64,000 nucleotides of DNA from assembly GCA_965223865.1 (NCBI GenBank), contig OZ245020.1, positions 1,568,001-1,632,000 of the forward strand, read 5' to 3'. The position numbers were made by a program, and so were the translations under genes. This stretch comes from Nitrosarchaeum sp. (GTDB lineage: Archaea > Thermoproteota > Nitrososphaeria > Nitrososphaerales > Nitrosopumilaceae). Of the stretch, positions 28,125-60,638 are shown one piece after another; position 1 is the first letter of the stretch, and every line of letters starts with the position of its first letter. Below the pieces are notes generated by a model that did no database searches, had not been told where the DNA came from, and saw only the letters and a list, made by a program, of their open reading frames with translations.

Positions 28125-28982
28125 ATGACATATTCACAAACACAAAACATCAAAACAAATCGCACGATAAATAGAACAGAAAGATTACAAGCATCATCGA
28201 CACAAGACATATGTCTATGTCAAAACAAAGAACGTCAATTAGTCACAACAGTTGAGGAAAGTGAGATTGTCTGCAAGAATTGTGGAGTTGTTTTTGGTTT
28301 TGATGAGGAGGACAACAGCAACATCATTTCGTATCAACACTTTACAAGATCCAAAATCAACTTGTATCAAAAAAGACAAAAGGGTGGAAATCCACATGAT
28401 GTAAAAAAGATAACACATATTCCCAATCTAAGATTGGAGAAAAGTAACAACTCAGACATCATTGCATTTGCAGATATTTGTGACAAGCTAAAACTATCTG
28501 ATGTCATATCTGAGAACTGCTGGAAGTTATACTGTGATTTGAAAAGGCATACAGGGAAATTTACCCGAGCAAAGGTGATGTGTCTTGCCATTTACCAGAC
28601 CTGCATGGACAGCTGCATTCCCTTTGATGAGGGAAAAATCCGAGACATGGTGTGCCAAAGCTTGGGAGTCAAAAATGCACCAATGCTAAAAAGCATTATC
28701 TTCAAGAGAGAAAAAGGAAAATACGGCATAAAATCAAACAATAAGGAGACATTCTATCTGAATTTGCATCTCTCCCAGGCACAACAAGACCATGATATCA
28801 AGGATATTACCATGCTAAGACGGATTGCAGCAAGATACTATGAAACCATTATAAAGCCGGCCTCTTCTTCTTCCTTAAAAAATAACGGATTATCACCTGT
28901 AATGAGAAATAATAATTCAGACTACAACACACTGGCCAAAAGGGCTGTGACACTGGCAATTCAGAGGTGTGCCATACAATGA
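28125..28982 (+). CDS. tfb: divergent transcription factor B (TFIIB)-like protein
   Basis: Zn ribbon CLC...EIVCKNCGVV; cyclin-fold repeat ICDKLKLSDVISENCWKLY...AIYQTC; canonical C-terminal BRE-binding HTH not recognisable. Confidence 0.75.
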   Translation: MTYSQTQNIKTNRTINRTERLQASSTQDICLCQNKERQLVTTVEESEIVCKNCGVVFGFDEEDNSNIISYQHFTRSKINLYQKRQKGGNPHDVKKITHIPNLRLEKSNNSDIIAFADICDKLKLSDVISENCWKLYCDLKRHTGKFTRAKVMCLAIYQTCMDSCIPFDEGKIRDMVCQSLGVKNAPMLKSIIFKREKGKYGIKSNNKETFYLNLHLSQAQQDHDIKDITMLRRIAARYYETIIKPASSSSLKNNGLSPVMRNNNSDYNTLAKRAVTLAIQRCAIQ

Positions 28983-30145
28983 GCAGCAACATACCATTAA
29001 AGACTAGAGTAGGGATTTCAGAGATACTTTCACCACCTGTAAGTGTGGGAATATGCACTCAATCTAACATTGACAAGTTTGCATATATTGCAAGGAATGA
29101 TCCAGAGTCATTGCCTGAAATCAAGCTAACAAAAGTAGATGGAAAACTCTATGCAATTAATCATCACGATGTCATATTGGGATGTATGCAGGCAGGTCCA
29201 AGTGTTATCTCAGAGATTAATGGAGTAATCACAGATGAGAATTGTAAAGGATCTCATGATATTTTACTTGCACATTTCAAAGAGATTCTGGAAAACGAGG
29301 TGCTTAATCCAGTGTCAGTCTTTGATAGCATATACTATCTAGAAGAGAAGATGCAATTACAAAAACAAGACATACTTGAGATGTTGCATATCAGTGGGAC
29401 ACCATTTGAGAAAATAATTCTCTCCAAAAATAACAACCACATCTATGCAAAATCAATTGAACAGTTACAACTAATTGTAAACCAACTATCTCATAGAAAG
29501 AATCTGATACCATCCCAGGTATGTGTCCCGTTGTATGTAATATCAAGAATCTCAAGACTGAATGAAGAGTCGCATCAGTTGCAGCTGATAACTCAGATTC
29601 ATTCAGATCTTGATGCAATGAGTGATGGCTCCTTTGCATGGACTACACCTGAACAGATTGATTCCATGATAAGATACATCAGACAGGATGCAACACACGA
29701 GGAAAACAACAGGGAAGAATCAACTATAGCCAACATGACAAAAACAAAAGACATAGGAATACCAGAAAAGAAATCAAAAAAAGAGAACAAGGACACAAAG
29801 CCCCAACCTGAAAAGACAGACCCTGAAACCCTTATGGTAAAAAAGTCAATACCCAACATGATAATCATCCCCGATGAAAAGACAGGCAAGCCTCAGATTC
29901 TTGTAAACAAGAGGACCGGCGCAGTATCAAAGATAGAGCCATCAGACAACCACAATATCATAAAGACCACTTCTGTAGGCACAAAACCACTCTATTCCAT
30001 CCCGCTTGATGTCATAAATCACCTGAAATTTGACAAATCCCAGATAAAGCACAAGAACCTCGAGTCGCCAAGGCAGCTAATTGATGCATTGAAGACATTT
30101 CCAAAGGGTACAAGACTGTCCGTATTCTGGAGCGTTGCGCAATAG
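28979..30145 (+). CDS. ParB/Srx-like N-terminal domain protein
   Basis: LPEIKLTKVDGKLYAINHH resembles the ParB core, followed by a helical HTH-like region; ATGA-coupled to tfb. Confidence 0.55.
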   Translation: MSSNIPLKTRVGISEILSPPVSVGICTQSNIDKFAYIARNDPESLPEIKLTKVDGKLYAINHHDVILGCMQAGPSVISEINGVITDENCKGSHDILLAHFKEILENEVLNPVSVFDSIYYLEEKMQLQKQDILEMLHISGTPFEKIILSKNNNHIYAKSIEQLQLIVNQLSHRKNLIPSQVCVPLYVISRISRLNEESHQLQLITQIHSDLDAMSDGSFAWTTPEQIDSMIRYIRQDATHEENNREESTIANMTKTKDIGIPEKKSKKENKDTKPQPEKTDPETLMVKKSIPNMIIIPDEKTGKPQILVNKRTGAVSKIEPSDNHNIIKTTSVGTKPLYSIPLDVINHLKFDKSQIKHKNLESPRQLIDALKTFPKGTRLSVFWSVAQ

Positions 30146-30156
30146 TAGTTCCATGA

Positions 30157-30882
30157 ATGACGCACAAAACCACACTGTCAGAGCTTGACAGAAAGATAAA
30201 GGGTTTTTTGCTCTACAAGAAAAAAATTCACAGAAATTCCACATGCAGCAACATTATGGATATGTTGTATCCGGATGTATGGCTTGCCGTTTCACAAATA
30301 GCATCAAGGACACGCAAGCCGTACCTTTACACAAAAAAGATTGTATTGCAGATGCACTCAGACGGATATCTACTCCATGATGAAAAAAGATACAACAGAA
30401 AATATTTCCTATCAGATGCAGGACGATGGTTTGCAGTATGTGTGCAGTTGGATTACATATCATTTCAGTCATTGTGTATTTTGTCTCAGACATACTGCAA
30501 AGTCAAAAGGAACCCAAACAGCAAGGCAAGCTGCTACATGATATCAAAGTTCAGAGATGTATTTGACAAGTCACACGATGATGAAGATGGTATATGTGCA
30601 AGTGCAGTGTATACGCCAAGAAACATTTCACAGTCAATTAGAATGCTGACTGACAGGAATTTATTATATTGGGCAAACGAGGATTTTGTAAGGATCAGCC
30701 CAGAAATTTTTGTTTACTTGCAAAAATATGATAGGGACTTTGTATCTCTTGTGTCATGGCAGAGAAGAATGGTTGAAAAATGCCGAAAGGAACAATTCAA
30801 AGCTGTCATGACTAGTCCAGAAAAAAATAATCTGTTCTCATTAATTGGCCAAATCAATGAACAATTGAAAGGTCCACTCTGA
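30157..30882 (+). CDS. hypothetical protein, probable winged-helix domains
   Basis: SQIASRT......KIVLQMHSDGYL....KYFLSDAGR. Confidence 0.6.
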   Translation: MTHKTTLSELDRKIKGFLLYKKKIHRNSTCSNIMDMLYPDVWLAVSQIASRTRKPYLYTKKIVLQMHSDGYLLHDEKRYNRKYFLSDAGRWFAVCVQLDYISFQSLCILSQTYCKVKRNPNSKASCYMISKFRDVFDKSHDDEDGICASAVYTPRNISQSIRMLTDRNLLYWANEDFVRISPEIFVYLQKYDRDFVSLVSWQRRMVEKCRKEQFKAVMTSPEKNNLFSLIGQINEQLKGPL

Positions 30883-30945: not shown

Positions 30946-31647
30946 TTGTTCTTTGTGGAAACAGAACTACGTATCATTTTGCTGATATCAATGTTGGGCA
31001 TTGCAGCAACATTTGATGTAAAGTCAAGAAAGATTCCCGATGCAATATGGCTGGTTTTTGGTGGGATTGGGGCTGTATTGTATATCTGGGACTATGATGA
31101 TGGAATGACCTCATACCATGTCATTACTATTCTTACATCAGTCTTTGCAGGAATGATGTTATGGAAATGGAAAATAGCAGGCTTGGCTGATACGTTTGCT
31201 GTTCTTGCAATGGCCGTAATCCTGCCAGTTCATTACGAATTTGTAATGATGCCAATAATGATTCTGGTAACGGCATTTCTTTTGATGGTGGTTTTTGTTA
31301 CTTTGTACAACGTGTCTCTGAATGTATTTGATATCCTCAGGTCAAGAAAGATGTGTATATTCTCTGAATTTTCAGAACCAAGATACAAAAAGGTTTTTGC
31401 ATTTCTTGTTGTTCACAGAAAAAGAAGATTTGAAAAATTTGTCATTCCAGTGGAGAATTCAATGAGCATAACGCCTTATGTCAAGTCATTTGCGTTTCTA
31501 TTATCTAGAAACAGAGTAAAAAGAGACAGCCAGTTACTGCAATCAAATGGAATGTATGTGCAAAGCATACCACCGCTAACAGTTTACATGTTTGGGGTTG
31601 ATTTGTTTTTGTTGTTACCTGAAATTCTAAGTATCTTGTTTTCTTAA
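30946..31647 (+). CDS. A24 prepilin peptidase (PibD/FlaK-like)
   Basis: ATFDVKSRKIPDAIW and GLAD catalytic Asp motifs; multi-TM. Confidence 0.85.
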   Translation: MFFVETELRIILLISMLGIAATFDVKSRKIPDAIWLVFGGIGAVLYIWDYDDGMTSYHVITILTSVFAGMMLWKWKIAGLADTFAVLAMAVILPVHYEFVMMPIMILVTAFLLMVVFVTLYNVSLNVFDILRSRKMCIFSEFSEPRYKKVFAFLVVHRKRRFEKFVIPVENSMSITPYVKSFAFLLSRNRVKRDSQLLQSNGMYVQSIPPLTVYMFGVDLFLLLPEILSILFS

Positions 31648-32836: not shown

Positions 32837-35800
32837 TTGGGAAACTATTGGTCACTGTCAAACATCCAAAAACCAAGTGGACATCTTGACTCTGTAAGAG
32901 ATTTTTTAGGAATAACAGACAAGTCAAAGATATCATGCTGCCAGGTAATCGTACCCATATCTATTGACGTCAAGCTTGCTATACAGTCAGCTTCTAATAT
33001 TCTGGGATTGCCATCAAAGAACCCATACCACAACACAGTACGCTCCTTTGAGATCTGGTGGAACGGCGCAAAAAAGCAATTAAAGCTAGTTCTGGTATCG
33101 CATTCCCCTGAAGACTTGGAATCATTCAAGACTTCATTCTCACAAATGTATCCCAATACCACATATTCTGACCTGAAAACAATTTCACCGGAATGGTACA
33201 ACATATCAAAAGAATACAAGATATTTGACGTGTCAACTCGCCACGGTCACTACAGTACCCTGTTTGACAGGTCAAATGCCCATAGTACCATCACCAGAGT
33301 TGCAAACACGATACAGCTTGCTAATTTTGCATGGATTCAGTTTGTATTTGCACCATACAATTTTACCCCGTATCTCAAGTCTCACCACAACCAGCTAAAC
33401 CGCAGAATAAAATTTGTTACAAGCAAAAAGTTTCGTAGCTGGATTGATGAGATCAAAGATATCAAGCCATACGAGAATCCGGAAAACGGAATGGACTTTT
33501 ACAACAACTACAAGACTATGCAGTCAGACACTTCACAGAAGATGCAAAAGTCGCATGTCATCATGAGCATCAGAGGATTGTTGTCCTCATCTGAAAATAG
33601 TAATTTAGAATCAATTCCATTTGATGATATAAAGTCAAACTATGAGCATCTAACCTCATACACATACAACTATTCAAAGTTCTGCAACAAAAAACCAAAG
33701 AGAGCTGGCTCTCCAATTACAATATCCGGAGAAAAGAAACATTTTGAACGCCAATCATTATTTGAGTTAAGGCTGATTCCTGCTGCAAAAAAGTCACTTG
33801 AAAATGCAATTAGTGGCTACTTTAATGCGTCAAAACTTACCGGGGATTACAAAATTAGAAAGCCACTACCATTTCTCGTACTGAATAATGACGAGATGTC
33901 TTTGTTTGTGCACCTACCTGATGCAGTAACTACAAAAAACTTGCAGACATCAAGGAATGTCTCATTGCCAACCAAGATAACATCAAAGAAGGGATTCAAT
34001 CTAGGATATTTGCAAGAATCCAAGATTAATTTTAGCCAGTATGGTAAAATTGTAAAATCAACTGACCAACAATGCTCAGTAGTATCGCCTGCAGATTTCT
34101 CGAGGCATGGCTATATCGTGGGTGGAACTGGTTCAGGCAAGACCACACTACTAAGAATAATTGCAAAGCATCTGGAGACATCAAATCTCAATGGAGAGTT
34201 CCCAAACAGTTTCATTTACCTGGATCCAAAAGGTGATGACTCACTCAAGTTCATCGAACAGTGTGGCAAACAATCAATTGAAAACCACAACGTACACTTT
34301 TTGGATCCAATTGAAACTGATTTCTCAATCAATCCATTGGAATTACCAAGGTATTCTCCTGAGAAAAGACAAGAGACAGTGTCCCGATATGTCGGATATT
34401 TCATGGATATTCTAAAGGAGTGGTACAAACAGCAGCAGAGCTTTGTGCAGATGGAGAGAATCTTTCGCGTGTTGCTCTTTTACATGTACCAGAACAATGA
34501 TGCACCAACTTTTTTGGACATGTATGATATCATAATAAACATCCAAGAAGAACAAGAAAAGTTTCTGCAGATAATGTTCAAGGCATTAGGGATGCCAGAT
34601 TCAGAAGCAATGAAGCAAGCTTTGACATCAATTGCAACATTACGTCCTGAATCATTTGTGCCATTGCTAAACAGAGTTGAGCAGTTTGCAACAGACCCAA
34701 TACTAAAAAAGGTGTTTTGTGTCAGACATGGAACCGTAAAGTTTGAAGATTTGATAAAACCAAACCAGTACACAATAGTCAGGATATCATCGCTACACTT
34801 GGCGCACCACATACAACCATTGGCAATCCAAGCTTTTGTCATAAAGTTGTGGTTTACCATACAGGAAAGAGCATCTCACACCACAGAGAATGACAGAAAC
34901 TATGTCATTCTAGCTTTGGATGAGTTCCAGATAGTATCAGATTTGCATGTGTTGCCGATGATACTATCGCAAGCGAGATCATATCGTCTTGGGTTGTTGT
35001 TGGCACACCAGACTACGGCTCAAATTTCAGACTCTTTACTAGAAGAAATAACTGGAAACTGTGGGACTCAGCTAGCCGGAAGAATATCAGGCAAGGATGC
35101 ATCAAAACTTGCAAACATCTGGGATCCTCGATTCTCAAAGGAGATTCAGCAGCAGCTAGCCTCGCAAGAAGACTATCACTGGACCATCAAGATGAGAGCA
35201 GAACCAGGCGAAGAACAGCCCACACCACTCCAGTTCTGGTTGCACAACCCGCCACCAAATCTCAATGAGAATGGGCATTTTCTTGATAATTTTATCTCAA
35301 AGCAAAAGAAACTGTATGGGAATTATGATGGAGATGATGACAAAAAAGAGAGTTCATTTGATGAAGATGACAATTCCTCCATTTTACAGCAAAAACAGAT
35401 TCAAAGAGACAGGTGGATGAGACACATCACAGTTTCACTTCCTGCAAAAGAGCAATGGCAAATAATGGTGGCATTGCACAAAAACAAGAAGAGTCCACTC
35501 CTGCTAACTGAAATCACAGAGCAAGTCAGAGCTGAGACACGTGATGATGTCATATCTATACTAAAGAAGATGATAAAAAATGGAATTGTAGAAAAGGATG
35601 ATTCAACCCGGAATGTAAAATATTTTCTGTCCAAAAAGGCTGTCAAGAACTATTTCACATTTGATGATACTAAAATTGGAACAGCTAAAGACATTTCAAG
35701 AATAACACAAAAGGTCATAAAAAATTATCTGGACAAGGGAGTGTTCATCACCATAGCATCTCAGAATATTGAAAAAGACAAGTATCGCCCTGACCTGATT

Positions 35801-36013
35801 GGATATCATTATGATGAGGAAAAATCAATCAGTATAGAGATAGAGTCGGCAAGTGAATTGACAAGCCATCCAGAACATGTCCGACTCAACATGGAAAAGT
35901 GGAAGGACATGGGATTTGACATGTGTCATTGCTGGTCTGAAAGCAAGAAACTATTGGAGGTTTATGATTACCAGGTAACGGACAAGAAAAATGTCAAGGC
36001 ATTTCTAATTTAA
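32837..36013 (+). CDS. virD4: VirD4/TraG-like coupling ATPase with C-terminal wHTH and PD-(D/E)xK-like domain
   Basis: HGYIVGGTGSGKT, LDPKGD, INPLE, LALDEFQ, SQARSYRLGLLLAHQ; C-terminal RPDL...ISIEIES. Confidence 0.85.
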   Translation: MGNYWSLSNIQKPSGHLDSVRDFLGITDKSKISCCQVIVPISIDVKLAIQSASNILGLPSKNPYHNTVRSFEIWWNGAKKQLKLVLVSHSPEDLESFKTSFSQMYPNTTYSDLKTISPEWYNISKEYKIFDVSTRHGHYSTLFDRSNAHSTITRVANTIQLANFAWIQFVFAPYNFTPYLKSHHNQLNRRIKFVTSKKFRSWIDEIKDIKPYENPENGMDFYNNYKTMQSDTSQKMQKSHVIMSIRGLLSSSENSNLESIPFDDIKSNYEHLTSYTYNYSKFCNKKPKRAGSPITISGEKKHFERQSLFELRLIPAAKKSLENAISGYFNASKLTGDYKIRKPLPFLVLNNDEMSLFVHLPDAVTTKNLQTSRNVSLPTKITSKKGFNLGYLQESKINFSQYGKIVKSTDQQCSVVSPADFSRHGYIVGGTGSGKTTLLRIIAKHLETSNLNGEFPNSFIYLDPKGDDSLKFIEQCGKQSIENHNVHFLDPIETDFSINPLELPRYSPEKRQETVSRYVGYFMDILKEWYKQQQSFVQMERIFRVLLFYMYQNNDAPTFLDMYDIIINIQEEQEKFLQIMFKALGMPDSEAMKQALTSIATLRPESFVPLLNRVEQFATDPILKKVFCVRHGTVKFEDLIKPNQYTIVRISSLHLAHHIQPLAIQAFVIKLWFTIQERASHTTENDRNYVILALDEFQIVSDLHVLPMILSQARSYRLGLLLAHQTTAQISDSLLEEITGNCGTQLAGRISGKDASKLANIWDPRFSKEIQQQLASQEDYHWTIKMRAEPGEEQPTPLQFWLHNPPPNLNENGHFLDNFISKQKKLYGNYDGDDDKKESSFDEDDNSSILQQKQIQRDRWMRHITVSLPAKEQWQIMVALHKNKKSPLLLTEITEQVRAETRDDVISILKKMIKNGIVEKDDSTRNVKYFLSKKAVKNYFTFDDTKIGTAKDISRITQKVIKNYLDKGVFITIASQNIEKDKYRPDLIGYHYDEEKSISIEIESASELTSHPEHVRLNMEKWKDMGFDMCHCWSESKKLLEVYDYQVTDKKNVKAFLI

Positions 36014-36333: not shown

Positions 36334-36362
36334 AGCATGACATATTTCATTTGTATTTAACC

Positions 36363-36405
36363 TCCTGACTGTCAGGATAATCCGGACTGTCATGACCATC
36401 CTGAC
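36363..36405. repeat. 18-bp-period palindromic repeats
   Basis: tcctgactgtcagga / tccggactgtcatga / tcctgac. Confidence 0.8.
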
Positions 36406-36780
36406 TATATTTTTGATGATTTGGTGTGAATTATGGGCTAATCAGGCACAAAAACACGACAAACTTCCCTAAACTGCACAAAATCTACAAAGTTCGCAAT
36501 TATACCTAATAGTTGATAATTTTATTATTTTTTTCTTTTTTTGAATTTTAGATTTTCTAAGGAAAATCATCCAAGGTTAAATCAAACTGAATAATACCAT
36601 TTCATGAATGAAATCCAGTATTTCAAACTATTAAAAGAAACAGTAAGAGAATCCAAAAAATTTGGAAGAATAATAATTGTTGTTAACAAGAATTCCCTAG
36701 ATGTAGAGAAACACTAGACAGAATTGAGTCTGAAATCAGAAAAGTAGCAACTCTAAATTAAAAGTATCAATCATTTTATT

Positions 36781-41799: not shown

Positions 41800-43212
41800 G
41801 TGAAATACCTGACCGTGTTTGCAATAATAATGATTGGCCTGATGATGGCCATTCCAAATTCTTTTGCGTTGTTGCCACCTCATCCTAGTGCAGACTATAA
41901 CGAACAAGTCTCATGGCAGCAAGATCGCATGTGGCATCTTGGAAAGAATCTCTCAGCTGGGAATTCTTACACCTACAAGATCTGTGATCCCAAAACAATA
42001 CAGACTTCTGCTGCAAACTATCACTACTTTACCCAGGGAAACGAGAATCACAATTCCAGTGTTTGCTATATGATAAAGATGGACTTTGTCAATCTGCTAA
42101 CCTCTGATGAAAACCAGATTAATAGTGATGTCTGGGTGGTACAGGCAGCAATTAGTGATTTTGCAGCAAATAAAGACGTCAGATATTCCGTGTTTCATGT
42201 TGATTCACAAACTTTTGAAGTGAATTCAGCTGATACCATTCATCCAGACACCATAAAATATGCTGATTCGCTGCAAAAAACCCTGTTTTCACTTTTCAAG
42301 TATACTGCACCTGAGCCACAACTATTGCAGATTGAAACAGAATGGGGCGAGGTAACTGAAGCACTGCGTGAAAGAGGATACAACCCACACATGGTAGTGT
42401 TTGACGATAACCAGGAATATTCTGTGACTCAGAACAACATACGCATGATTGACAAACAAAACACTCCAGTTACAAGAAATATTTCAGATGCGTTCAAGGT
42501 AGGATATGAGATTGACATTTTTGATCCGCTCATCATATCTCAGGACAAGAAAACGAAAATTGTAGAGGAAGACAACAACAACGTGACAAGTTATTTTTTG
42601 ATATCATCTGACTTGCCATTTCCATTATCTGCTATATCTTACAGTCCAGTGCACATAGTGCAGCCCCAAAAACAATACGAGTTTGAATTAGTGGAATTTC
42701 TTGCAAACAACAAAAATGTGGACATTGGAATAAAACCTGTTTTTGAGAAACCAGAAGAAATTGTTATTCCTGAAATACCAATTGAGACTGGCACAATTGC
42801 ATTAACTTTTCCAGAAGACAGTGTTCCAGATGATACAGGTATTGTTGTTGACGATGTAGTTGTTGACGATGTAGTTGTTGACGATGTAGTTCCTGATGGT
42901 GATGTAGTTACAGATGACATTGTTACAGATAACGATAGTGTTGCTGTTGACGATGTAGTTCCTGATGGTGATGGCATTGCTGATCCTACTCCATCTGAGG
43001 ATATTGACCATTCCAAGATTGCAGGACTAGTGGTGTTACTGGTTGTAATGATTGCAGTTTTTGTAGTCTTTAAGAAATTCAAGGAATCTGGATTCAAGAC
43101 CGGACTCAAAAATACAATAAAGAAAAAACGACAACAGCATACAACAAAACAGATTGTTCAGTTTGATGACAAACTGCACATTGACATCAAGACCATTACT
43201 GATGTCAACTAG
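41800..43212 (+). CDS. exported protein with acidic DDVVV linker and TM anchor
   Basis: Signal peptide; 15-bp repeat x3 at 42844-42888; TM near C-terminus. Confidence 0.85.
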   Translation: MKYLTVFAIIMIGLMMAIPNSFALLPPHPSADYNEQVSWQQDRMWHLGKNLSAGNSYTYKICDPKTIQTSAANYHYFTQGNENHNSSVCYMIKMDFVNLLTSDENQINSDVWVVQAAISDFAANKDVRYSVFHVDSQTFEVNSADTIHPDTIKYADSLQKTLFSLFKYTAPEPQLLQIETEWGEVTEALRERGYNPHMVVFDDNQEYSVTQNNIRMIDKQNTPVTRNISDAFKVGYEIDIFDPLIISQDKKTKIVEEDNNNVTSYFLISSDLPFPLSAISYSPVHIVQPQKQYEFELVEFLANNKNVDIGIKPVFEKPEEIVIPEIPIETGTIALTFPEDSVPDDTGIVVDDVVVDDVVVDDVVPDGDVVTDDIVTDNDSVAVDDVVPDGDGIADPTPSEDIDHSKIAGLVVLLVVMIAVFVVFKKFKESGFKTGLKNTIKKKRQQHTTKQIVQFDDKLHIDIKTITDVN

Positions 43213-45069: not shown

Positions 45070-47025
45070 GTGAAATTAAATCCATTTGCAGACAAACAAT
45101 CTGTCAAGAAAAACTCTGAAAAAAATAATCCAAATAAAAAACAACACATACCATCATCAAAGAAAAAATCATCCCCCCACAAGTTTGCATTCAGTTACAG
45201 CATAATCCCTACAAACTTTATCAATCTGTCAGAAGAGGCCCAGATACAAAGACTTGGACAATTCTTTGACATTCTCAATGTTATTGATGACCGTATCAAA
45301 ATCACAATGTCAAGGAGGATGGTGCCAATTACAGTGGAAGGACAAATTCAGAATATGCCTGTAATGCAGGTGCACCTTGAATCACATACCCCAATTGCCG
45401 ATACCTTGGAGCAAAACAGGCTAGAGTACATCTCAGGTATTACCCCTCCACAATTTCAGATAAAAAAAGAGCATTTCTCCATGATGGAACTTGTTGAGAT
45501 GATTCCAGATGAGACAAACAGTGATGACGACAATGCCAACACTGGAGAGAAAATATTCTCAAGAACATTTACGCTTGATGGAATCCCTGCTACTCTGCCT
45601 TATGCATGGATAACCAAAGTCTTTGACATCTGCTCTCAGATACAAATGTGGTACAATCCGCTTGACAAAGACGAGGCAATAATCAGGATGGTCCGATTCA
45701 AAAACATCATCTATGACGATGCAAAATCCAACAGGGCAACATCGGAGTTATTCAAGAGAGCAGATAATGCTGAAAACTCTTTGAGAAAAGACACAACACG
45801 ACTCTATGAGGTTATCGTAAACTGCACTGTAATTGGACAAGACAGGAAATCACTCAAGGAAAACTGCAAGACATTCAAGAAACACCTCAAGAGGTATGGC
45901 GGGCATTTTAGTGCAATTTCTGCCAAACAAGCAAGCATGCTGTATGAAGGATTTGGAAAAAAGATAACTTTTGACCGTGGCTCCTGTGCAATCTTGTATT
46001 CGTTTGCATCAGCTGACATGCTAGAGATTCCTGATGGCATCCCATTGGGAATCAACATGGACTCCAAGGGTCCGATAATATTTGACATTGGAAAACGCAC
46101 CAACTACAACATTGCAGTGATTGGCAAGTCAGGTTCAGGAAAGTCATTTACTGTCAAGATTTTGCTGAATCGTTTGTTGCAAAGGTTTCCTGATTCACAT
46201 GTTTATGTGATAGACCCAATGGGGGAATACTCCAAGATTGCTGACTTTTTTGGAATGGATGTACTGTATCTCAAGGATGAAAAAGATCAGCTTGGTTTGG
46301 ATCCGTTTGTTTTGCTGGAACCATTGGATGCAGCAGACATCTTATCTGAGATTACAAACGCGCCTGATGATGTAAAGAGACAGTTCCAGACATACTGTGG
46401 AAAGGCCAGAACCTTTGAGGAATTCTTTGAAATGATTCCAAAAAAATACAAGGACAGCCTTATCAATCTGAAGAAAGGTCCACTGTCTAGAATAATTCTG
46501 GGCAAACCAAAACTAAACTCTCAGAAAAAAGTGATAATGTCAATGGAAGGGGCAACAGGATCTGAGACAGAACAGATGATTTTGTTGTTACTGTTAAACA
46601 AAATATTCAAGATTTGCAACGACTTGCCTGCAAGGACAAGAAAGATTGTCTTGATAGATGAGGCCTGGATGCTGCTGCGAATGAGGAATGCTGCAAAGTA
46701 TGTCAACATGATTGTTCGCATGGGACGGAAACTGAACATCACCTTTGGATTCATCTCCCAAAGACTGGAGGACATCTCAAAGGAAGATGACTCTGGAATT
46801 GGCAAAATCATTGACAACATGGAGACCAAAATCATCTTGGGTCTAGAGGAACAAGCAGCAGAGACTGCAAGAAATGTCTTGAGATTGTCTGATTCTGAGA
46901 CAAACAAAATCCGTGCATTTAATGCAGGACATGCGTTGTTTCTCACAAAGAACCATAGGATTCACGCAAAGTTTATGCCAACGACACAGGAAAAAGAGAT
47001 GTTTGATACAAGACCGTTGGAATAG
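45070..47025 (+). CDS. virB4: VirB4-like type IV secretion ATPase
   Basis: NYNIAVIGKSGSGKSFTVK, VIDPMGEY, LIDEAW, RMGRK...ISQ. Confidence 0.93.
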   Translation: MKLNPFADKQSVKKNSEKNNPNKKQHIPSSKKKSSPHKFAFSYSIIPTNFINLSEEAQIQRLGQFFDILNVIDDRIKITMSRRMVPITVEGQIQNMPVMQVHLESHTPIADTLEQNRLEYISGITPPQFQIKKEHFSMMELVEMIPDETNSDDDNANTGEKIFSRTFTLDGIPATLPYAWITKVFDICSQIQMWYNPLDKDEAIIRMVRFKNIIYDDAKSNRATSELFKRADNAENSLRKDTTRLYEVIVNCTVIGQDRKSLKENCKTFKKHLKRYGGHFSAISAKQASMLYEGFGKKITFDRGSCAILYSFASADMLEIPDGIPLGINMDSKGPIIFDIGKRTNYNIAVIGKSGSGKSFTVKILLNRLLQRFPDSHVYVIDPMGEYSKIADFFGMDVLYLKDEKDQLGLDPFVLLEPLDAADILSEITNAPDDVKRQFQTYCGKARTFEEFFEMIPKKYKDSLINLKKGPLSRIILGKPKLNSQKKVIMSMEGATGSETEQMILLLLLNKIFKICNDLPARTRKIVLIDEAWMLLRMRNAAKYVNMIVRMGRKLNITFGFISQRLEDISKEDDSGIGKIIDNMETKIILGLEEQAAETARNVLRLSDSETNKIRAFNAGHALFLTKNHRIHAKFMPTTQEKEMFDTRPLE

Positions 47026-47200: not shown

Positions 47201-50200
47201 TTGATTGTGAAGGTTTTAGAACTTTTAGAAGAGGAACTTCCAAAGTATATTGAAGAAGTAAAACTAAAACATTCTGAAAATGCCAAAGCAGTTGCATTTT
47301 CATCTTTCATTCAGAAAGTTTTTGATATTGAGTCTAAAGATCTAGATTTTGAAGTTCCAATTAAAACTGAAGTATTAGAAATGAGAGGTAGAATTGATGC
47401 AGTATTTGGAAATTTAATAATTGAATTTAAGAAAGATTTGTTAAAAAGCCTGGAAGAAGCAAAAGATGAATTAGAAAAATATTTTCAAGCGTTTAAAGAA
47501 AGATATTCAGATGCAAATTATCTTGGAATAGCTAACGATGGTATTAGATTTCAAGTATACCAACCGATTTTTGAAGATAAAAAAATTAAAGAAATTGAGA
47601 AAATTGATGAAATAAATTTAGAAAACAGTTCACCTAGAGATGTTTTTTTATGGTTCGATTCTTATTTTTTTACTTCTGAAAAAATAATTCCTACTTCAGA
47701 TGATCTAAAAAAAAGATTCGGATTAGATAGTCCTACATTTTCAGCAATGAGAAGACAGTTAGAAGAATTATTTAACAAAGTTTTCGAATACAGACCTGTT
47801 AAAGTAAAGTATGATAGTTGGGCTCGTTATTTAGAAATTGTTTATGGAGACAAACCAAATGAGAAAAAACTTTTTTTCAAACATACTTATCTCTCAACAT
47901 TTGTGAAATTACTTGTTCATATTAAATTAACAAAAAATTCTCAAAGGCAAAATCACTCAATTGTGCCTATTCTTTTTGGAGATACATTTACTCAATATGG
48001 AATTAATAATTTTCTCGAGGAAGATTTTTTTACTTGGATAATGTTTGTGACTATTCGTAAACAAGCAAGTAAGATTTTTGAAAAATTACTTGACGAGCTT
48101 TATGTTTATGATTTAGACAAGATTGATGAGGATGTTTTAAAAGAACTTTATCAAGAGTTGGTTGATCCCGATGTAAGAAAGCTTTTGGGTGAATTTTACA
48201 CGCCTGATTGGCTTGCGGAGAAAATGATCGATGAATCTCTGCAAAAAAATCCTTTGTCAAGTGTAATGGATCCTTCATGTGGTTCAGGGACTTTTTTGTT
48301 TAAAACCATTAGATACAAAATAGATAGACTAAAAAAAGATAGATTATCCAATTCTGAAATTCTTAATCACATAGTTGAAAATGTGATTGGTTTTGACGTA
48401 CATCCATTAGCAGCTATTATTTCAAAAACTAATTATCTTCTAGCACTTCGTGATTTGTTATCTTCAAAAACAGGCTCCATAAGCATACCTGTTTTCTTAA
48501 GCGATTCTCTCAAGGTTCCAACTAAAAAAATGGATGTTGCACTGGGCGTTACATTATTCGAATATACTGCTTTAGATAAAAAATTTGTATTTCCAGTAGA
48601 TATTGCAAAAAATATGCAAAAAATGGATCAGGTGATTGATAGCTTACGAACTCATGGAATAGAATTTGAAAAAATCTATGATAGAAAATATGAATCTAGT
48701 TATGTAGACAATACTGTAATAGATGGAGCTTATGAAAATCTTGTCCAAAGTTTTAAGCGATCATTAGTGAAGGTTGTTAGTAAATCAGAATTAATAATTT
48801 TGGAACAAAATGTAAAAACTTTATTCGATCTTATAAAAGAAGAATCAAATTCAATTTGGACTTATGTTCTTCGAAATATGTACAAACCTATTGCAGTGTC
48901 TTATCGAAAGGTTGATCTCTTAATTGGAAATCCTCCATGGTTAGGATTAAACAATATGAAAAATGAGGAATATCAAGACTACCTAAGAGAACGTAGTAAA
49001 CATTATCTACTTACAGAAAAGAGAAAAAGTCAAAATATTTCTAACTTGAATCTTGCTACATTATTTTTTGTTCAATGTGTAGATCAATATTTGGATAATA
49101 AAGGAAAAATATCTTTTGTGATGCCTCAAGGAATTCTTTTTGCATCACAACATGCTAATTTTTTGAAATTTGAAAAAATTCCTATAAAATTAACTCAAAT
49201 TTATGATTTAGAAAAAGTTACTCCTCTTTTTAGAATATTATCATGCGTAATTTTTGGTACAAAAGGTTCAACAACGGAATATCCAATAACATCTTATGAT
49301 GTGAGCGGCAATTTACCGTCAAACAATTCCAATTTAGAAACAGCAAAGTCAGTATTAACATTCAAAAAACTAGAATATTCTCCTGTAGAAAGAAAGGAAG
49401 AAAAATCATTTTATTATGATAGATTTTCTCAAGGCGCCCAAATTATTCCTAGATGTTTCTGGTTTGTAGATCTCTTAAGTGATAGTTTTCTTGGTTTTAA
49501 CCCCGAAAAACCTCTTGTTGAATCATCTGAAAATAAAGATGCTAAGCATCCTTGGGATAAAATTAGGCTCAAAGGTAATGTGGAAAAACAATTTCTTTCT
49601 ACGTCAATTTTAAGTAAAGACGTTGTTCCATTTGGAAATCTACCTCGAAGAGTAATTGTTGTACCATTACTTATGGATGAACACAATGTCAAATTACTTG
49701 ATAATTCGCAACAAATTGAAATTAGTGGATTATCAATTTCAAAATATTTAGAAGATGCAGAAAAAAAATGGGAGAAAAATGCACCCGTAAAATCCAGAAA
49801 AAATATGACCATTTATGATAGAATTGATTATCAAAAAGATCTTTCTTCACAAAATCCTTTTCAGGGATACACGGTACTTTATGTGAAATCAGCAACTTAT
49901 CTTGCTAGTTGTGTTATAGAAAATAATGAAATCAGTTTAATCCCAGTTGGTGAAAATAGTTTAAAGATTAAAGGTTTTTTTGCTGAAGGAACAACATATT
50001 TCTTTACAACTGATTCTAAAGAGGAGGCATACTATCTTTGTTCTATTTTTAATTCAAAAACCCTAGACGAAAAAATTAAACCATTTCAAAGTAGAGGTAT
50101 GTTTGGCGGAGCAAGAGATATTCATAAGTTGCCTCTTTCATTTAATATCCTTAAATACGATTCTTCAAATAAAATCCACAAATTGCTGTCTGACGAAGGA

Positions 50201-50341
50201 ATAAAATGTGCAAAAACTGTTAAACAAAATCTTTCTGGTTTATCAACAAAATCATCTGGTCAATTAAGAAAAAAAATTCGAACAATGCTTGAAAAAGAAT
50301 TAGACATAATAAATGAAAAATCGAAACAGCTATTAAAATAA
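47201..50341 (+). CDS. Type IIG-like restriction-modification enzyme (nuclease + amino-methyltransferase + TRD)
   Basis: GRIDA....IIEFK nuclease motif; LGEFYTP, DPSCGSGTF, GNPPW. Confidence 0.92.
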   Translation: MIVKVLELLEEELPKYIEEVKLKHSENAKAVAFSSFIQKVFDIESKDLDFEVPIKTEVLEMRGRIDAVFGNLIIEFKKDLLKSLEEAKDELEKYFQAFKERYSDANYLGIANDGIRFQVYQPIFEDKKIKEIEKIDEINLENSSPRDVFLWFDSYFFTSEKIIPTSDDLKKRFGLDSPTFSAMRRQLEELFNKVFEYRPVKVKYDSWARYLEIVYGDKPNEKKLFFKHTYLSTFVKLLVHIKLTKNSQRQNHSIVPILFGDTFTQYGINNFLEEDFFTWIMFVTIRKQASKIFEKLLDELYVYDLDKIDEDVLKELYQELVDPDVRKLLGEFYTPDWLAEKMIDESLQKNPLSSVMDPSCGSGTFLFKTIRYKIDRLKKDRLSNSEILNHIVENVIGFDVHPLAAIISKTNYLLALRDLLSSKTGSISIPVFLSDSLKVPTKKMDVALGVTLFEYTALDKKFVFPVDIAKNMQKMDQVIDSLRTHGIEFEKIYDRKYESSYVDNTVIDGAYENLVQSFKRSLVKVVSKSELIILEQNVKTLFDLIKEESNSIWTYVLRNMYKPIAVSYRKVDLLIGNPPWLGLNNMKNEEYQDYLRERSKHYLLTEKRKSQNISNLNLATLFFVQCVDQYLDNKGKISFVMPQGILFASQHANFLKFEKIPIKLTQIYDLEKVTPLFRILSCVIFGTKGSTTEYPITSYDVSGNLPSNNSNLETAKSVLTFKKLEYSPVERKEEKSFYYDRFSQGAQIIPRCFWFVDLLSDSFLGFNPEKPLVESSENKDAKHPWDKIRLKGNVEKQFLSTSILSKDVVPFGNLPRRVIVVPLLMDEHNVKLLDNSQQIEISGLSISKYLEDAEKKWEKNAPVKSRKNMTIYDRIDYQKDLSSQNPFQGYTVLYVKSATYLASCVIENNEISLIPVGENSLKIKGFFAEGTTYFFTTDSKEEAYYLCSIFNSKTLDEKIKPFQSRGMFGGARDIHKLPLSFNILKYDSSNKIHKLLSDEGIKCAKTVKQNLSGLSTKSSGQLRKKIRTMLEKELDIINEKSKQLLK

Positions 50342-50353
50342 GTTTCAAAATTT

Positions 50354-51757
50354 TTAAAGACTGAACTTAGTTCCTTCAGTAATCATAGTTACATTTTGTT
50401 CAATAGTTTTGTAAACCTCTGGATGTTCAGTGTGAATTGGAAAAATGAGTTTTCCACCAATCTCTGAAACTGCTTTGAGAAGATCACTTCCTCTAGCATG
50501 ACCTGAGCAATGACTCTGAAATTTATGCATACCAAAGTGATCAATCCATGCATTAAGTCGTTCCTGAGATAATTCTTGTTCCTCATTATATGGTTCAGAT
50601 GAAGAGTGGATATATCTTGCACCCGGTTTTAGTTTCATGTCAATTAGAGCAGTAAAACTGTAAAATCCTATGGCACAAAGCACCTTATCTGGTCTCTGAG
50701 CAATTTGTTCAGCTGTCCATGTATTATGCAAATCTAAAAATTCTTTATCTTTACCTTTGTAATCTCTATCGGAGTATGTTCCAGATCCTCTTTTTGGAAG
50801 ATAAATGATAATGTCTTCATCGTCAATATTTGGAACATCAAGATGCTTATCTTGTGAGAGATATTTTAAAAAATAAGCATCATTGATTTTTACAACAAAC
50901 TTTCTTCCTGTCTGTTTTGCAATATTAAAAAATGTACGAAGTCTATCAACATCTTTGAAATTAAAATCTGCAAAAACTAGATTATTAGTTTCATTCACGG
51001 TTTGACTAGATTCTTGGTAAACTTTTTGTTCAGATTCGTCTGTTTCTTTGTCTGTTATTCTAGTTCCTTCAGTGATTAATGCAATTGGTTTTATTTCTTT
51101 TGCACGATTGATAAAATCACATGTCATCTCAGAGTGTGTTCCATGTAGTCTAATATCTCCAGTATATGCAATTGGACCTTCTGATGTCCAAATAATGAAA
51201 CCATAGGCTCCAGGTACTGAGTGATCTACATGAATTGGTTCTACTTCTAATGAACCAACCTTGAATTTATCACCAGTTCTAAATTCATTAATTGTTCTTC
51301 TGATGGGAGAATCTTTTAGACTGTAAGGTCTTGGTTTGTAGTCAAGAATTTCTTTTTCAATAGTTCTTGATGCACGTTCTGATAATGCTTTGAGAATCAA
51401 ATGACATGCTGAGCCCATATGGATTGGTATGTCTTCATGCAGAAATGAAATGTAATCAGCATGGTCTGCATGAGCATGAGTTAGAAGAACTGCATCAATA
51501 TCTGGTTCTTGAGGTTTTCTACCCGCCATCACCATCAAATCATCTCGATAAACCCCTGGGATATCAGGTACTAGCCCCATGGTCAGAAAATCTACGATTC
51601 CATTGGAGGTTCTAGGATTGAGATATTCCTCAAAATAGGTTGCACGTCTTGAGAAACTCTTGCCAAAATCTAAGAAAACTTTGGTATCTTTATCTTCCAG
51701 CAGTATTTTATTTCCTCCAATTTCATTAACACCACCATAGAAGGTCAGAGAAGTCAC
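50354..51757 (-). CDS. MBL-fold metallo-hydrolase, RNase J/beta-CASP-like
   Basis: GGVNEIGGN, THAHADH, VDHS, YTGD, HCSGHA, PIHTEH. Confidence 0.9.
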   Translation of the reverse strand: MTSLTFYGGVNEIGGNKILLEDKDTKVFLDFGKSFSRRATYFEEYLNPRTSNGIVDFLTMGLVPDIPGVYRDDLMVMAGRKPQEPDIDAVLLTHAHADHADYISFLHEDIPIHMGSACHLILKALSERASRTIEKEILDYKPRPYSLKDSPIRRTINEFRTGDKFKVGSLEVEPIHVDHSVPGAYGFIIWTSEGPIAYTGDIRLHGTHSEMTCDFINRAKEIKPIALITEGTRITDKETDESEQKVYQESSQTVNETNNLVFADFNFKDVDRLRTFFNIAKQTGRKFVVKINDAYFLKYLSQDKHLDVPNIDDEDIIIYLPKRGSGTYSDRDYKGKDKEFLDLHNTWTAEQIAQRPDKVLCAIGFYSFTALIDMKLKPGARYIHSSSEPYNEEQELSQERLNAWIDHFGMHKFQSHCSGHARGSDLLKAVSEIGGKLIFPIHTEHPEVYKTIEQNVTMITEGTKFSL

Positions 51758-51867
51758 ACATCAAAGTCATATTATCATACATAAAAATACGATCAGATGA
51801 TTACAAACCACAAGTAAAGCTCAAACTGTTCCTGATCTTTTAAACAGAGAGTAGTGTAAACCTATCA

Positions 51868-52944
51868 TTGACTGAAAAAAAAGACAAGATCTCAATTTCC
51901 AGAAGACAACGAAATGCAGCATACAAAGCATGGGAAACAATGAAAAGACGGAAATGGGAATCAAGAGGAGAATTTTCTGAGAAGATAAAAGATTACATGA
52001 CATTACAACAGATTTCCAGAGTCAATCATCCAGAGTTAGAAGAGAAGATTCCTGAAAAAATAGCAAAGGGGATTGTAAGTCTTTTTCATAAAACACCAAA
52101 AGATATTGCTTGTGGTAAATTTTGGGAGTTACGTTGGGCTTATGGTTGCCCTTTGGATTGTAACTATTGTTATCTTCGTGGTACAATGAGAGGAAATATG
52201 AAACCAAGTCCATTAAAATCGGAACACGTTCTAAAAGCCATTGATGAGGCATTTGCAAAAATTAAAACACCATCTATTTTCAATACAGGTGAGCTTTCAG
52301 ATTCTCTGATGTTTCCATCGTTGATGGAGAAGATTGTAGATAAATTTGAAGAACAATCAACGCACAAAGTTGCATTACTTAGTAAAATGGGAACTCATCA
52401 TATTGATTTCCTTATGAAAAAATTACGAAAACAAACAATATGTTCATGGAGTATAAACGCAATTCCAGTGGCAAAGAGATGGGAAAAGGCCGCTACTGAT
52501 CCATACGATAGAATAGCTGCTGCATCGATGGTTGATTCGATGGGATATGACACACGAATACGAATTGATCCAATTTTTCCAATCTTCGAATGGAAAAAAC
52601 ACTACGAAGAAATTATAGATTATTTATTCTCAAAGTTGGAGCCTAGAAGGATAATTTTAGGCACACCTAGAGGATTATGGAAGACAATAAAGTATGCAAA
52701 GAATGCCAAAATAGACATGTCATGGGCAAATTTCTTCAATGAAGATTCTAGCTGGGGTAAAAAATTAGAATTTAACCAAAGAATGGAAATCTACCAATTT
52801 TTGATGGATAAATTAACATCAATCGGCTATTCACAATCCAAAATTAGCATGTGTAAGGAAACTACAGAAATGTGGTCTAAAATTGGACTCGATTACAAAC
52901 CATTAACCTGCAGTTGCTATGGAAAAAATGCGTTATCTATTTAG
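51868..52944 (+). CDS. spore photoproduct lyase-like radical SAM protein
   Basis: GCPLDCNYCYL, FNTGELSDSL, WSIN, RIDPI; TTG start. Confidence 0.88.
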   Translation: MTEKKDKISISRRQRNAAYKAWETMKRRKWESRGEFSEKIKDYMTLQQISRVNHPELEEKIPEKIAKGIVSLFHKTPKDIACGKFWELRWAYGCPLDCNYCYLRGTMRGNMKPSPLKSEHVLKAIDEAFAKIKTPSIFNTGELSDSLMFPSLMEKIVDKFEEQSTHKVALLSKMGTHHIDFLMKKLRKQTICSWSINAIPVAKRWEKAATDPYDRIAAASMVDSMGYDTRIRIDPIFPIFEWKKHYEEIIDYLFSKLEPRRIILGTPRGLWKTIKYAKNAKIDMSWANFFNEDSSWGKKLEFNQRMEIYQFLMDKLTSIGYSQSKISMCKETTEMWSKIGLDYKPLTCSCYGKNALSI

Positions 52945-54055
52945 CAAATTCAATCATACACTTTTCTGGATAATCTAATCGTTTAGTAGATCGATCAGTT
53001 ACGTTAATAATTTTGGGTGGAATGGCTTTTTCCAATGGTCGTAAAACTTTGGTTTTAGTAAAAAGAAAAGGAGTTTCGGTAATCACATACTCATGAATTT
53101 CTTCTAAAAGAACCGTTTTTCCTTTAAAATGTTCAAAAATCATTTTTCCAACCTCTGAAATCCAGTATTCTTCATCATTATAATCTAACAAAAACGTTTG
53201 ATTAGGATTTGTTCTGTCTGAAAATTTGTAATAACCGCCTTGGCCAACTTTCTGCATGGCTCTTTTGATTACCTCTAAACCTCTCCAATGTTTTGTTCCA
53301 TAAACCAGATGGTAAATTGTATTGTTATCCGAACCAATCATTTCAAATGTTCTAACAAATTTTGCACCACCAACATTTTTTAGTTGTTGTACGTACAATT
53401 CTAAAAGAAACTTACGTTTTTCATCGGGTGTTTCATAATCATCTACGTCTTTCCAAGAAGAAGATGCATACAATCCATTCAATGCATTTTCTCGTAGCTC
53501 GTCATGAAATCTAAGTACGAAGCCAGACATGAAAGTAACAAGCACTTCACATTTGTTGTAGTTTAACATTCTTTGTATAAGGTTCATTGGCAAACCAGAA
53601 AATCCAAATGGATCTAAAAAAGCAAAAGTTGGAGCTAACTTTGCACCATCATTTTCTAATTGGTCTAAAGTTTCTTCAAGGGATTGTGCAAATTCAGATT
53701 TTTGAACATGGTAGAGTATTTGATCATCTTCTTTGTTTTCAAGTTCTGGGAATTTAGATTTTAACACTTCTTGTAATTTATTACATCTGTCCTTATCTTT
53801 TTCAATAAACCAAAAAACAATTTTTTTGAAATGTTTTCTCATAGAATGTTCTACAGCGGTACGTATAGCGATTACAGGAGAACCTTCTTCACCTTTTGAA
53901 TAAACCCCAGGGCCAGCAAATCCATCAAGATATACTATTCGCCCATCAAATCTTGAAAGTATAGGAAACCAAGGTTTGAGATATTCACGAAGAATTTCAT
54001 GTTTAGCGTTGGTATGGGGATCAAGAGGCCAAACTGTCGAATTAATTCCGGACAA
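52937..54055 (-). CDS. tcmP: three-Cys-motif partner protein (SAM-dependent methyltransferase-like)
   Basis: HT.AKHEILREYL..W, YLDGFAGPG, GSP, FAFLDPFG; next to DUF5131. Confidence 0.9.
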   Translation of the reverse strand: MSGINSTVWPLDPHTNAKHEILREYLKPWFPILSRFDGRIVYLDGFAGPGVYSKGEEGSPVIAIRTAVEHSMRKHFKKIVFWFIEKDKDRCNKLQEVLKSKFPELENKEDDQILYHVQKSEFAQSLEETLDQLENDGAKLAPTFAFLDPFGFSGLPMNLIQRMLNYNKCEVLVTFMSGFVLRFHDELRENALNGLYASSSWKDVDDYETPDEKRKFLLELYVQQLKNVGGAKFVRTFEMIGSDNNTIYHLVYGTKHWRGLEVIKRAMQKVGQGGYYKFSDRTNPNQTFLLDYNDEEYWISEVGKMIFEHFKGKTVLLEEIHEYVITETPFLFTKTKVLRPLEKAIPPKIINVTDRSTKRLDYPEKCMIEFAK

Positions 54056-54198
54056 CTATATTTGATTTTATTTTAAATTCTTAATTTTTTCTATTGTTTT
54101 TCCTTTAATATTATCATAATCTAGTGAAAATAATGACTATGGAATTCATAATGGACTCGATTTATCCTTTAAATAGACTACTTTTATGGTGAGAATAA

Positions 54199-60488: not shown

Positions 60489-60497
60489 AATAGTATA

Positions 60498-60579
60498 CGC
60501 CAGGTAAGGGATTCGAACCCCTGCACGCTTACGCGTAGCCGTTTTCGAGACGGCCGCCTTACCACTTGGCTAACCTGGC
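60498..60579 (-). tRNA. tRNA-Ser(CGA)
   Basis: GCCAGGT acceptor stem, D-loop TGGTA, anticodon arm GCCGT-CTCGAAA-ACGGC, long variable arm, GTTCGAATC. Confidence 0.97.
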
Positions 60580-60638
60580 ATTTAATCTGAGATTATCTCC
60601 ATAATAAAGCAAATCAGAACTCGAGAAAATACCAAAAA

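Follow-up and report, generated by a model that had tools for sequence, protein, structure and literature searches.

The locus considered here belongs with the thaumarchaeal integrative-conjugative elements (ICEs), all of which are reported to encode TFIIB homologues (PMC6563490). In published accounts no relaxase is known for archaeal conjugative elements (PMC6563490; PMC9905601; PMC12282955; PMC12857230), and reviews of July 2025 (PMC12282955) and December 2025 (PMC12857230) still describe the archaeal relaxase as unidentified. Conjugation of the plasmid pT33-3 has been reported to be abolished by mutation of its VirB4- and VirD4-like genes (PMC12857230), and pilus structures published in 2023 indicate that archaeal conjugative pili are too narrow for double-stranded DNA (dsDNA), with single-stranded DNA (ssDNA) argued to pass (PMC9905601). 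Elsewhere, restriction-endonuclease-like relaxases, namely TraX of pAD1 and MobC of CloDF13, have been assigned to the MOBC class; they are described as PD-(D/E)xK enzymes for which a covalent intermediate was not observed (PMC12857230). Here we analyse a stretch of 64,000 nucleotides (nt) from Nitrosarchaeum sp. (assembly GCA_965223865.1, contig OZ245020.1, positions 1,568,001 to 1,632,000), hereafter the window, which contains a thaumarchaeal ICE whose VirD4/TraG-like coupling ATPase continues beyond its motor into a winged helix and a domain of predicted nuclease fold.

An earlier reading of these letters, here called the original prediction, had proposed this C-terminal extension as a candidate built-in relaxase, with Replic_Relax (MOBL-type) relaxases as the precedent. 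The layout that it described is borne out by the analysis below, and the link to that family and class is not; its idea that one polypeptide both processes and pumps the DNA stands as a hypothesis.

A coupling ATPase with a winged helix and a nuclease-fold domain

The open reading frame (ORF) at 32837-36013 encodes a VirD4/TraG-like ATPase of a Nitrosopumilaceae ICE. Three Pfam families score above their curated cut-offs, as the VirD4-like label of the original prediction would lead one to expect: TraG-D_C (29 bits, cut-off 22), TrwB_AAD_bind (23.7 bits, cut-off 20.5) and DUF87/HerA (27.5 bits, cut-off 23.2), with the ATPase matches falling at residues 402-582 and 668-754. The start position is matched in the alignment by homologues, which begin there with Met. 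Residues 1-399 match no Pfam family at E up to 10. No transmembrane helix is predicted in the 1058 amino acids (aa), where the highest Kyte-Doolittle value in any 19-residue window is 1.48, against a threshold of 1.6; the N-terminal transmembrane anchor by which type IV coupling proteins (T4CPs) are recognised is therefore missing, as had been claimed, whereas the VirB4-type ATPase expected in the same mobile element is present, together with an integrase and tRNA-Ser.

The P-loop motor is thus soluble, and behind it come in turn an acidic linker, a winged helix of MarR type and a domain of PD-(D/E)xK fold. The linker (residues 826-854) varies in both length and sequence across the alignment. 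Mean pairwise identity within the close family is 0.85 for the ATPase, 0.70 for the nuclease-like domain, 0.66 for the N-terminal region and 0.65 for the winged helix. The extension singled out earlier (35400-36013) corresponds to residues 855-1058, and the strings quoted from it are present, LLLTEITEQV...KYFLS within residues 886-931 and RPDLIGY...ISIEIES at residues 984-1004.

The winged helix is weak in Pfam in the window copy (Penicillinase_R, E 0.02) and clearer in its relatives, among which Penicillinase_R matches 12 of 20 (best 1.9e-6) and MarR 9 of 20. An AlphaFold2 model of the C-terminus from residue 826 (pLDDT 81.8) places its helices (H) and strands (E) at H46-57, H65-71, H77-89, E93-96 and E103-106 in model numbering. 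This model resembles MarR-type regulators, the best being 7wze_A with Z 13.3 and a root-mean-square deviation (rmsd) of 1.6 over 74 residues, and a sequence search of the C-terminus against PDB chains returned winged-helix regulators only. The winged helix of the original prediction thus holds.

Residues 943-1058 were folded alone by AlphaFold2 with a 34-sequence alignment. The model is confident (pLDDT 95.4, pTM 0.88) and predicts a helix, three strands, a helix, a strand, a helix and a strand, with an alpha-beta-beta-beta-alpha-beta core (H11-24, E28-31, E45-49, E54-61, H70-79 and E87-92 in model numbering) that corresponds to the PD-(D/E)xK core fold. The model was compared with 48,161 solved chains, independently of Foldseek. 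The best match is AF1548 (1y88_A; Z 9.5, rmsd 3.2, 100 residues), followed by NucS (2vld_B, Z 8.8), PaqCI (8.5) and Upx (8.1), and further matches include Can2/Card1, BspD6I, FokI, SdaI, Hjc (Z 6.0-6.5), VRR-NUC, HamA, BglII, NgoMIV, Vsr and HindIII. Among the best 50 matches the PD-(D/E)xK superfamily is in the majority, with a minority of unrelated proteins (ribosomal proteins, RNA-polymerase subunits, a mutase). The proposal of a PD-(D/E)xK-like domain after the winged helix is accordingly well matched by the model.

Active-site-like residues lie around strands 2 and 3 and in the helices that follow. In the model, the canonical Asp, D986, immediately precedes strand 2, E1001-I-E1003 lies on strand 3, and E1007, H1011-P-E1013, N1018 and K1021 lie in the helices after strand 3. 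Ten residues (Q976, D986, E1001, E1003, S1004, E1007, H1011, E1013, N1018 and K1021) are invariant in an alignment of 14 sequences from thaumarchaeal elements, the two Sulfolobales plasmids pHVE14 and pRT2 and the Thermococcus plasmid pT33-3; in a second alignment, of 12 sequences, the invariant positions are Q976, D986, E1001, E1003, H1011 and E1013. The alignments show strong constraint on the active-site-like residues of this predicted nuclease-fold domain, and their invariance across three archaeal lineages favours an enzyme over a fold in decay.

No relaxase family was found in the window with Pfam (57 ORFs of at least 100 aa), NCBIfam (21 ORFs) or PHROGs (13 ORFs), and the HUH, Rep_trans and TrwC-type families (PF03432, PF08751, PF02486) gave no match in the Pfam scans of these 57 ORFs. 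A six-frame search of the organism's own genome, which is 99.98% complete, gave no match to PF13814 (E up to 1), PF08751 or PF02486, and a single match to PF03432, at 14.1 bits, below its cut-off and outside the window. ORFs 30157-30882 and 58162-58944, which had been named beforehand as possible relaxases, have no informative match in Pfam (E up to 10), PDB sequences or a protein atlas, and neither scores as a relaxase. The claim that the element has no recognisable relaxase is upheld, and so is the accompanying statement that the relaxases of many archaeal conjugative elements are unidentified, which agrees with the reviews up to December 2025 (PMC12282955; PMC12857230); among element ORFs that belong to no family, a lack of relaxase matches is absence of evidence only.

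The proposed membership in Replic_Relax was rejected. A search at E up to 10 with PF13814 did not pick up residues 826-1058; the genome gave no match as above, and in 20 family members there is none at E up to 1 among the 25 most-matched of 29 families. A language-model cluster with PF13814 in 12% of its members (score 0.85) is a lead only. The label 'MOBL' likewise falls, as restriction-endonuclease-like relaxases are placed in MOBC (PMC12857230). A CloDF13 record was dropped as a MOBC comparator, having no PF13814 match and a mob region of fragmented ORFs.

Relatives of the module and its convergent neighbour

The C-terminal module is associated with the motor. Its relatives among proteins of similar length number 26, of which 24 are 960-1083 aa long and all carry TraG-D_C. 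A profile search of 1.84 billion representatives with the module returned 134 proteins (E up to 0.001), and a Pfam scan of 44 of these found T4CP domains in 27; of the remaining 17, 15 fall below 520 aa in length and could be either partial sequences or versions that stand alone. Two Sulfolobus plasmids were reached by tblastn with the thaumarchaeal C-terminus, the profile of which matches pHVE14 at 1.9e-21 and pRT2 at 7.7e-22. A search with the pHVE14 module yielded 17 plasmid records, 12 from Sulfolobus, 3 from Saccharolobus and one each from Acidianus and Thermococcus, always under a gene annotated as an ATP-binding, type IV secretion system (T4SS) DNA-binding or HerA-like protein; pNOB8, pKEF9, pING1, pARN3/4, pAH1 and the 103-kb Thermococcus nautili plasmid pT33-3 are among them. 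Full-length BLASTP aligns residues 372-1058 collinearly with residues 256-889 of the pHVE14 TraG (E 1e-51), and the pT33-3 ATPase is collinear through the end of the nuclease-like domain (E 6e-59). The homology with the archaeal plasmid TraG family is thus collinear and includes the C-terminal module; we regard the window protein as a thaumarchaeal representative of a pan-archaeal TraG family.

Members of this protein family were found in 36 of 301 sampled genomes of the class, 34 of 191 of the same taxonomic family and 18 of 401 of the phylum, a patchy distribution as expected for a mobile element. The closest named genome to the window is a Nitrosarchaeum metagenome-assembled genome with 88% identity.

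Further copies were observed in the organism's own genome. A second full-length copy at about 734300-737460 of G000:C1 (locus L003) has a frame of 1056 aa and a C-terminus 59% identical to that of the window protein, and a 62-aa remnant of the nuclease-like domain lies at 1871732-1871896 (L004). Each has an AbrB-like neighbour, so that the first probably marks another element and the second the remains of one. At G000:C1:651416-652800 (L005), a frame of 384 aa, in which membrane segments at the N-terminus are combined with a winged helix, abuts a 130-aa nuclease-like frame (profile E 2.4e-13); this looks like a frameshifted, membrane-anchored winged helix-nuclease protein that is not a coupling ATPase. 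In a related genome, a protein of about 500 aa (L071:4539-6029; G074:C1:1335538-1337028) carries a divergent C-terminal winged helix-nuclease module (E 2.9e-10) and no ATPase, and adjoins genes for OLD-family (AAA_15 + TOPRIM) and KAP NTPases in a defence-island-like setting. Frames of 486-529 aa resembling it occur in three other genomes.

Convergent with the ATPase gene is a small gene for an AbrB/MazE-like protein, a new observation in this window. Its own family match is NCBIfam AbrB at E 0.004, and its paralogue beside the second ATPase copy of the genome (L003:2142-2447) matches PF04014 at 1.5e-8. In 35 of 39 thaumarchaeal-type loci a relative likewise converges on the ATPase gene, and in none of the five Sulfolobales or Thermococcus loci does one do so. 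The AbrB-like proteins have a variable acidic linker followed by a C-terminal Asn-Pro-Leu (NPL) that is invariant in 20 of 20 aligned sequences. A DNA-binding domain with a conserved terminal peptide is as expected of a factor that docks on a partner, and the protein may, judging from these alignments, assist the motor as an accessory factor or regulate the nuclease. The small genes that converge after TraG in pHVE14 and pRT2 were considered as AbrB-like and rejected; between the two of them, too, similarity is scant (E 0.03).

Imperfect palindromic repeats (CCTGACTGTCAGG, CCGGACTGTCATGACC, TCCTGAC; 36362-36410) are clustered where the AbrB-like gene starts or a little upstream of that point, and they may be an operator. 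The palindromic GACTGTCA motif of this cluster shows no enrichment across the window, where 11.7 matches would be expected and 11 occur.

Possible roles of the C-terminal module

Published accounts leave open by what route archaeal conjugative elements generate and choose the DNA for transfer. We consider the C-terminal module of the ATPase a plausible candidate for a relaxase-equivalent built into the motor, a reading of the models and alignments that we hold at slightly less than even confidence. A site on the excised element would be located by the winged helix, perhaps with help from the AbrB-like protein encoded next door, and there the nuclease domain would hydrolyse one strand or cut the duplex. 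The hexameric motor, tethered in this way, would then pass the DNA to a channel of VirB4/VirB6 type, and there would be no covalent pilot protein, as reported for MOBC relaxases. The narrow pili, the MOBC precedent and the lack of a known archaeal relaxase make this reading attractive. In its fullest form, which we advance tentatively and regard as unlikely to hold in every part, the archaeal coupling ATPase itself would act as relaxase for the ICEs of Nitrososphaeria, for Sulfolobales plasmids and for pT33-3, recognising the origin through its winged helix, nicking it with its own PD-(D/E)xK domain and threading the strand without a pilot; in thaumarchaeal elements the NPL tail of the AbrB-like protein would dock on the motor, giving a two-protein relaxosome.

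Several points weigh against a relaxase built into the motor. Nuclease activity, a nick site, an origin of transfer (oriT) and strand specificity are hypothetical for every family member, and archaeal elements have, to our knowledge, yielded no oriT so far. Because the pT33-3 knockout takes out the entire gene, it is silent on the nuclease-like domain. PD-(D/E)xK enzymes hydrolyse DNA, which leaves the piloting of the strand and its rejoining in the recipient unexplained. The canonical Lys of (D/E)xK is replaced by Glu (E1003), and an invariant Lys, K1021, stands in the next helix; BamHI has the same Lys-to-Glu substitution. By sequence the domain matches no nuclease or relaxase family, PF13814 included, and neither Pfam nor PHROGs has a match to it. 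With a limit of E 0.001 Foldseek finds nothing in the PDB; its top rows are NucS (5.2e-3), Bax1, BstEII and Hjc. Models that lack a true match often reach a best Z of 7-8, so that the Z of 9.5 stands only moderately above background and the case for the fold rests on the consistency of the list of matches and on the register of the motif, more than on any one score. With hhalign, the domain aligns to a profile of Hjc-like proteins (PF01870 type) from related genomes at a probability of 4.4% (E 0.0093, 58 columns); this non-significant alignment puts D986 on the Asp of the Hjc 'PD' and E1001-I-E1003 on the Hjc E-A-K. The divergent copies of the module in proteins that are not T4CPs indicate that it is not tied to conjugation alone, and element ORFs without a family match could hold the real processing enzyme.

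The replaced Lys would also suit a module that recognises the substrate without chemistry, binding a site on the element in the style of FtsK gamma on KOPS or TraB on clt while the motor pumps dsDNA. A motor with a C-terminal winged helix is indeed the FtsK/TraB layout. However, FtsK_SpoIIIE matches the ATPase at just E 0.11, and lineages whose domains are only 36-39% identical share five invariant residues, acidic or His, a pattern that would be difficult to account for if the domain neither catalysed nor bound metal. Transfer of dsDNA has been proposed for Sulfolobus plasmids, and the suggestion that archaeal conjugation works in this way is cited in Krupovic et al. 2019 (PMC6563490); the narrowness of conjugation-type pili in Archaea speaks against it (PMC9905601). 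We judge recognition without chemistry to be unlikely. In another reading the domain would be an active nuclease without being a site-specific relaxase; tethered to the translocase in the manner of HerA-NurA or a viral terminase, it would open the DNA or degrade one strand during export of the other. T4CPs belong to the FtsK-HerA superfamily, DUF87/HerA matches the ATPase, and the folds nearest to the domain, NucS, Bax1 and Hjc, belong to nucleases that recognise DNA structure, not sequence; further, Beltran et al. 2023 (PMC9905601) propose HerA-NurA as the source of the ssDNA that archaeal Ced/Ted systems transfer. The adjoining winged helix nevertheless suggests sequence recognition, and unregulated degradation of a strand would endanger the host chromosome, and we give this explanation a low probability.

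Alternatively, DNA processing may be the work of another element ORF (for example 28967-30145, 30157-30882, 55057-55941 or 58162-58944) or of a host enzyme, and the module would then serve a secondary purpose, for example in defence, in entry exclusion or in resolving multimers or junctions. Many element ORFs have no family match, and divergent modules occur outside T4CPs, one of them beside the OLD-family and KAP NTPase genes. For the Sulfolobales Ced system, DNA processing has been ascribed to a nuclease with a ParB domain (PMC11868833), and in thaumarchaeal ICEs ParB-like genes are reported beside TFIIB (PMC6563490). On the other hand, none of the candidate ORFs scores as a relaxase, ParB or nuclease, and the module is fused to the T4CP throughout. 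A comparison across lineages that covered the TraG-like protein showed it to be shared with the Sulfolobales plasmids and pT33-3. We give such a division of labour a similarly low probability.

If the motor does carry its own relaxase-equivalent, conjugation in these Archaea would have a relaxase-free, motor-integrated start, and the module would serve as a marker for finding transfer-competent archaeal elements in genomes. A nuclease-fold domain on a shared motor makes the question experimentally simple, and genetic systems exist for pT33-3 and the Sulfolobus plasmids.

The host element and comparison with known systems

The genes around the ATPase are those of a thaumarchaeal ICE, and their coordinates are collected in Table 1 with those of the ATPase and its parts.

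Table 1. Features of the ATPase gene and the surrounding element, in window coordinates
Feature	Position	Strand	Basis and remarks
TFIIB-like gene	28125..28982	+	Weak zinc ribbon, Pfam Zn_Ribbon_TF E 0.0058, below cut-off
Prepilin (type IV leader) peptidase-like membrane protein	30946..31647	+	Pfam Peptidase_A24 E 4.3e-4, below cut-off; several transmembrane segments
VirD4/TraG-like coupling ATPase gene	32837..36013	+	1058 aa, TTG start; Pfam and BLASTP
N-terminal region, residues 1-399	32837..34033	+	No known family, no transmembrane helix
P-loop ATPase core, residues about 400-800	34034..35236	+	Pfam matches; most conserved part
Walker A GGTGSGKT, residues 429-436	34121-34144	+	Translation
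Acidic linker, residues 826-854, probably disordered	35312..35398	+	pLDDT <50 in C-terminal model
MarR-type winged helix-turn-helix, residues 871-931	35447..35629	+	AlphaFold2 model, structural match, family Pfam matches
PD-(D/E)xK-fold nuclease-like domain, residues 943-1058	35663..36010	+	Model pLDDT 95.4, structural matches, invariant residues
D986 codon	35792-35794	+	Nuclease-like domain
E1001 codon	35837-35839	+	Nuclease-like domain
E1003 codon	35843-35845	+	Nuclease-like domain
AbrB/MazE-like gene, 129 aa	36010..36399	-	Convergent with ATPase gene, 4-nt overlap at its stop codon
VirB4-like conjugation ATPase	45070..47025	+	Pfam AAA_10, DUF87, P-loop_TraG; NCBIfam VirB4 families
Tyrosine integrase	59160-60488	-	Pfam Phage_integrase E 8e-16; NCBIfam XerA-like
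tRNA-Ser	60497-60580	-	ARAGORN; with integrase marks one element end

An att repeat of the tRNA-Ser end was sought, and no exact 12-mer was found, short matches occurring at chance level only. An 11-nt exact match between 529-539 and 60498-60508, at the 3' end of tRNA-Ser, is on its own at chance level. Cargo genes at 47201-55038 encode a 1046-aa N6 DNA methylase of Eco57I/MmeI type, a metallo-beta-lactamase-fold RNA-specificity protein, a spore-photoproduct-lyase-like radical S-adenosylmethionine protein and a TcmP / DUF5131 pair. Inside ORF 41800-43212, the product of which has a signal-like N-terminus and a C-terminal transmembrane segment, tandem 15- and 18-nt repeats (42809-42984) would encode a repetitive acidic, Val-rich stretch.

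Among relaxases, the MOBC enzymes TraX and MobC offer a precedent for the chemistry proposed here, in having a PD-(D/E)xK catalytic domain and no covalent DNA intermediate observed (PMC12857230). In contrast to the window protein, MOBC relaxases are bacterial and separate from the coupling ATPase, and no sequence relationship was detected in a comparison made with PF13814 alone. With NucS/EndoMS, Hjc, Bax1 and AF1548 the domain shares the core fold (Z 9.5 to 6.0), and in the non-significant alignment with Hjc the strand-2 Asp and the strand-3 acidic residue come into the same register. The window family has E-x-E for E-x-K and, in the next helix, a distinctive H-P-E and N-x-x-K signature, and neither sequences nor profiles link these proteins significantly to the domain. 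For the motor, FtsK gamma and Streptomyces TraB provide the model of a hexameric FtsK-HerA-type translocase with a C-terminal DNA-reading winged helix, and HerA-NurA that of a translocase working with a nuclease. The FtsK, TraB and HerA motors, however, are not known to be fused to a PD-(D/E)xK domain, and the fold of NurA is RNase H-like.

The element as a whole resembles the thaumarchaeal ICEs of Krupovic et al. 2019 (PMC6563490), which are reported to combine VirB4 and VirD4, a TFIIB-like gene, a prepilin peptidase and an integrase at a tRNA gene, with no relaxase candidate. In the article text compared, that paper mentions neither a nuclease-like nor a winged-helix domain on the VirD4 homologue, and the phrase 'nuclease domain' occurs 0 times. 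More generally, the published accounts, in the text compared, name only VirD4/TraG homology for the archaeal TraG/VirD4 proteins and no nuclease domain.

The closest counterparts of the window protein are the TraG/VirD4 proteins of archaeal plasmids (pNOB8, pHVE14, pKEF9, pING1, pARN3/4, pSOG1/2, pAH1, pTC1, pMGB1, pYN01 and pT33-3). The N-terminal 370 residues do not align between the two groups, and the plasmid proteins run 200-450 residues further, whereas the thaumarchaeal protein stops right after the nuclease-like domain. Between these ends, at about 26-27% identity, both have a collinear ATPase, winged helix and nuclease-like domain, with the same invariant residues.

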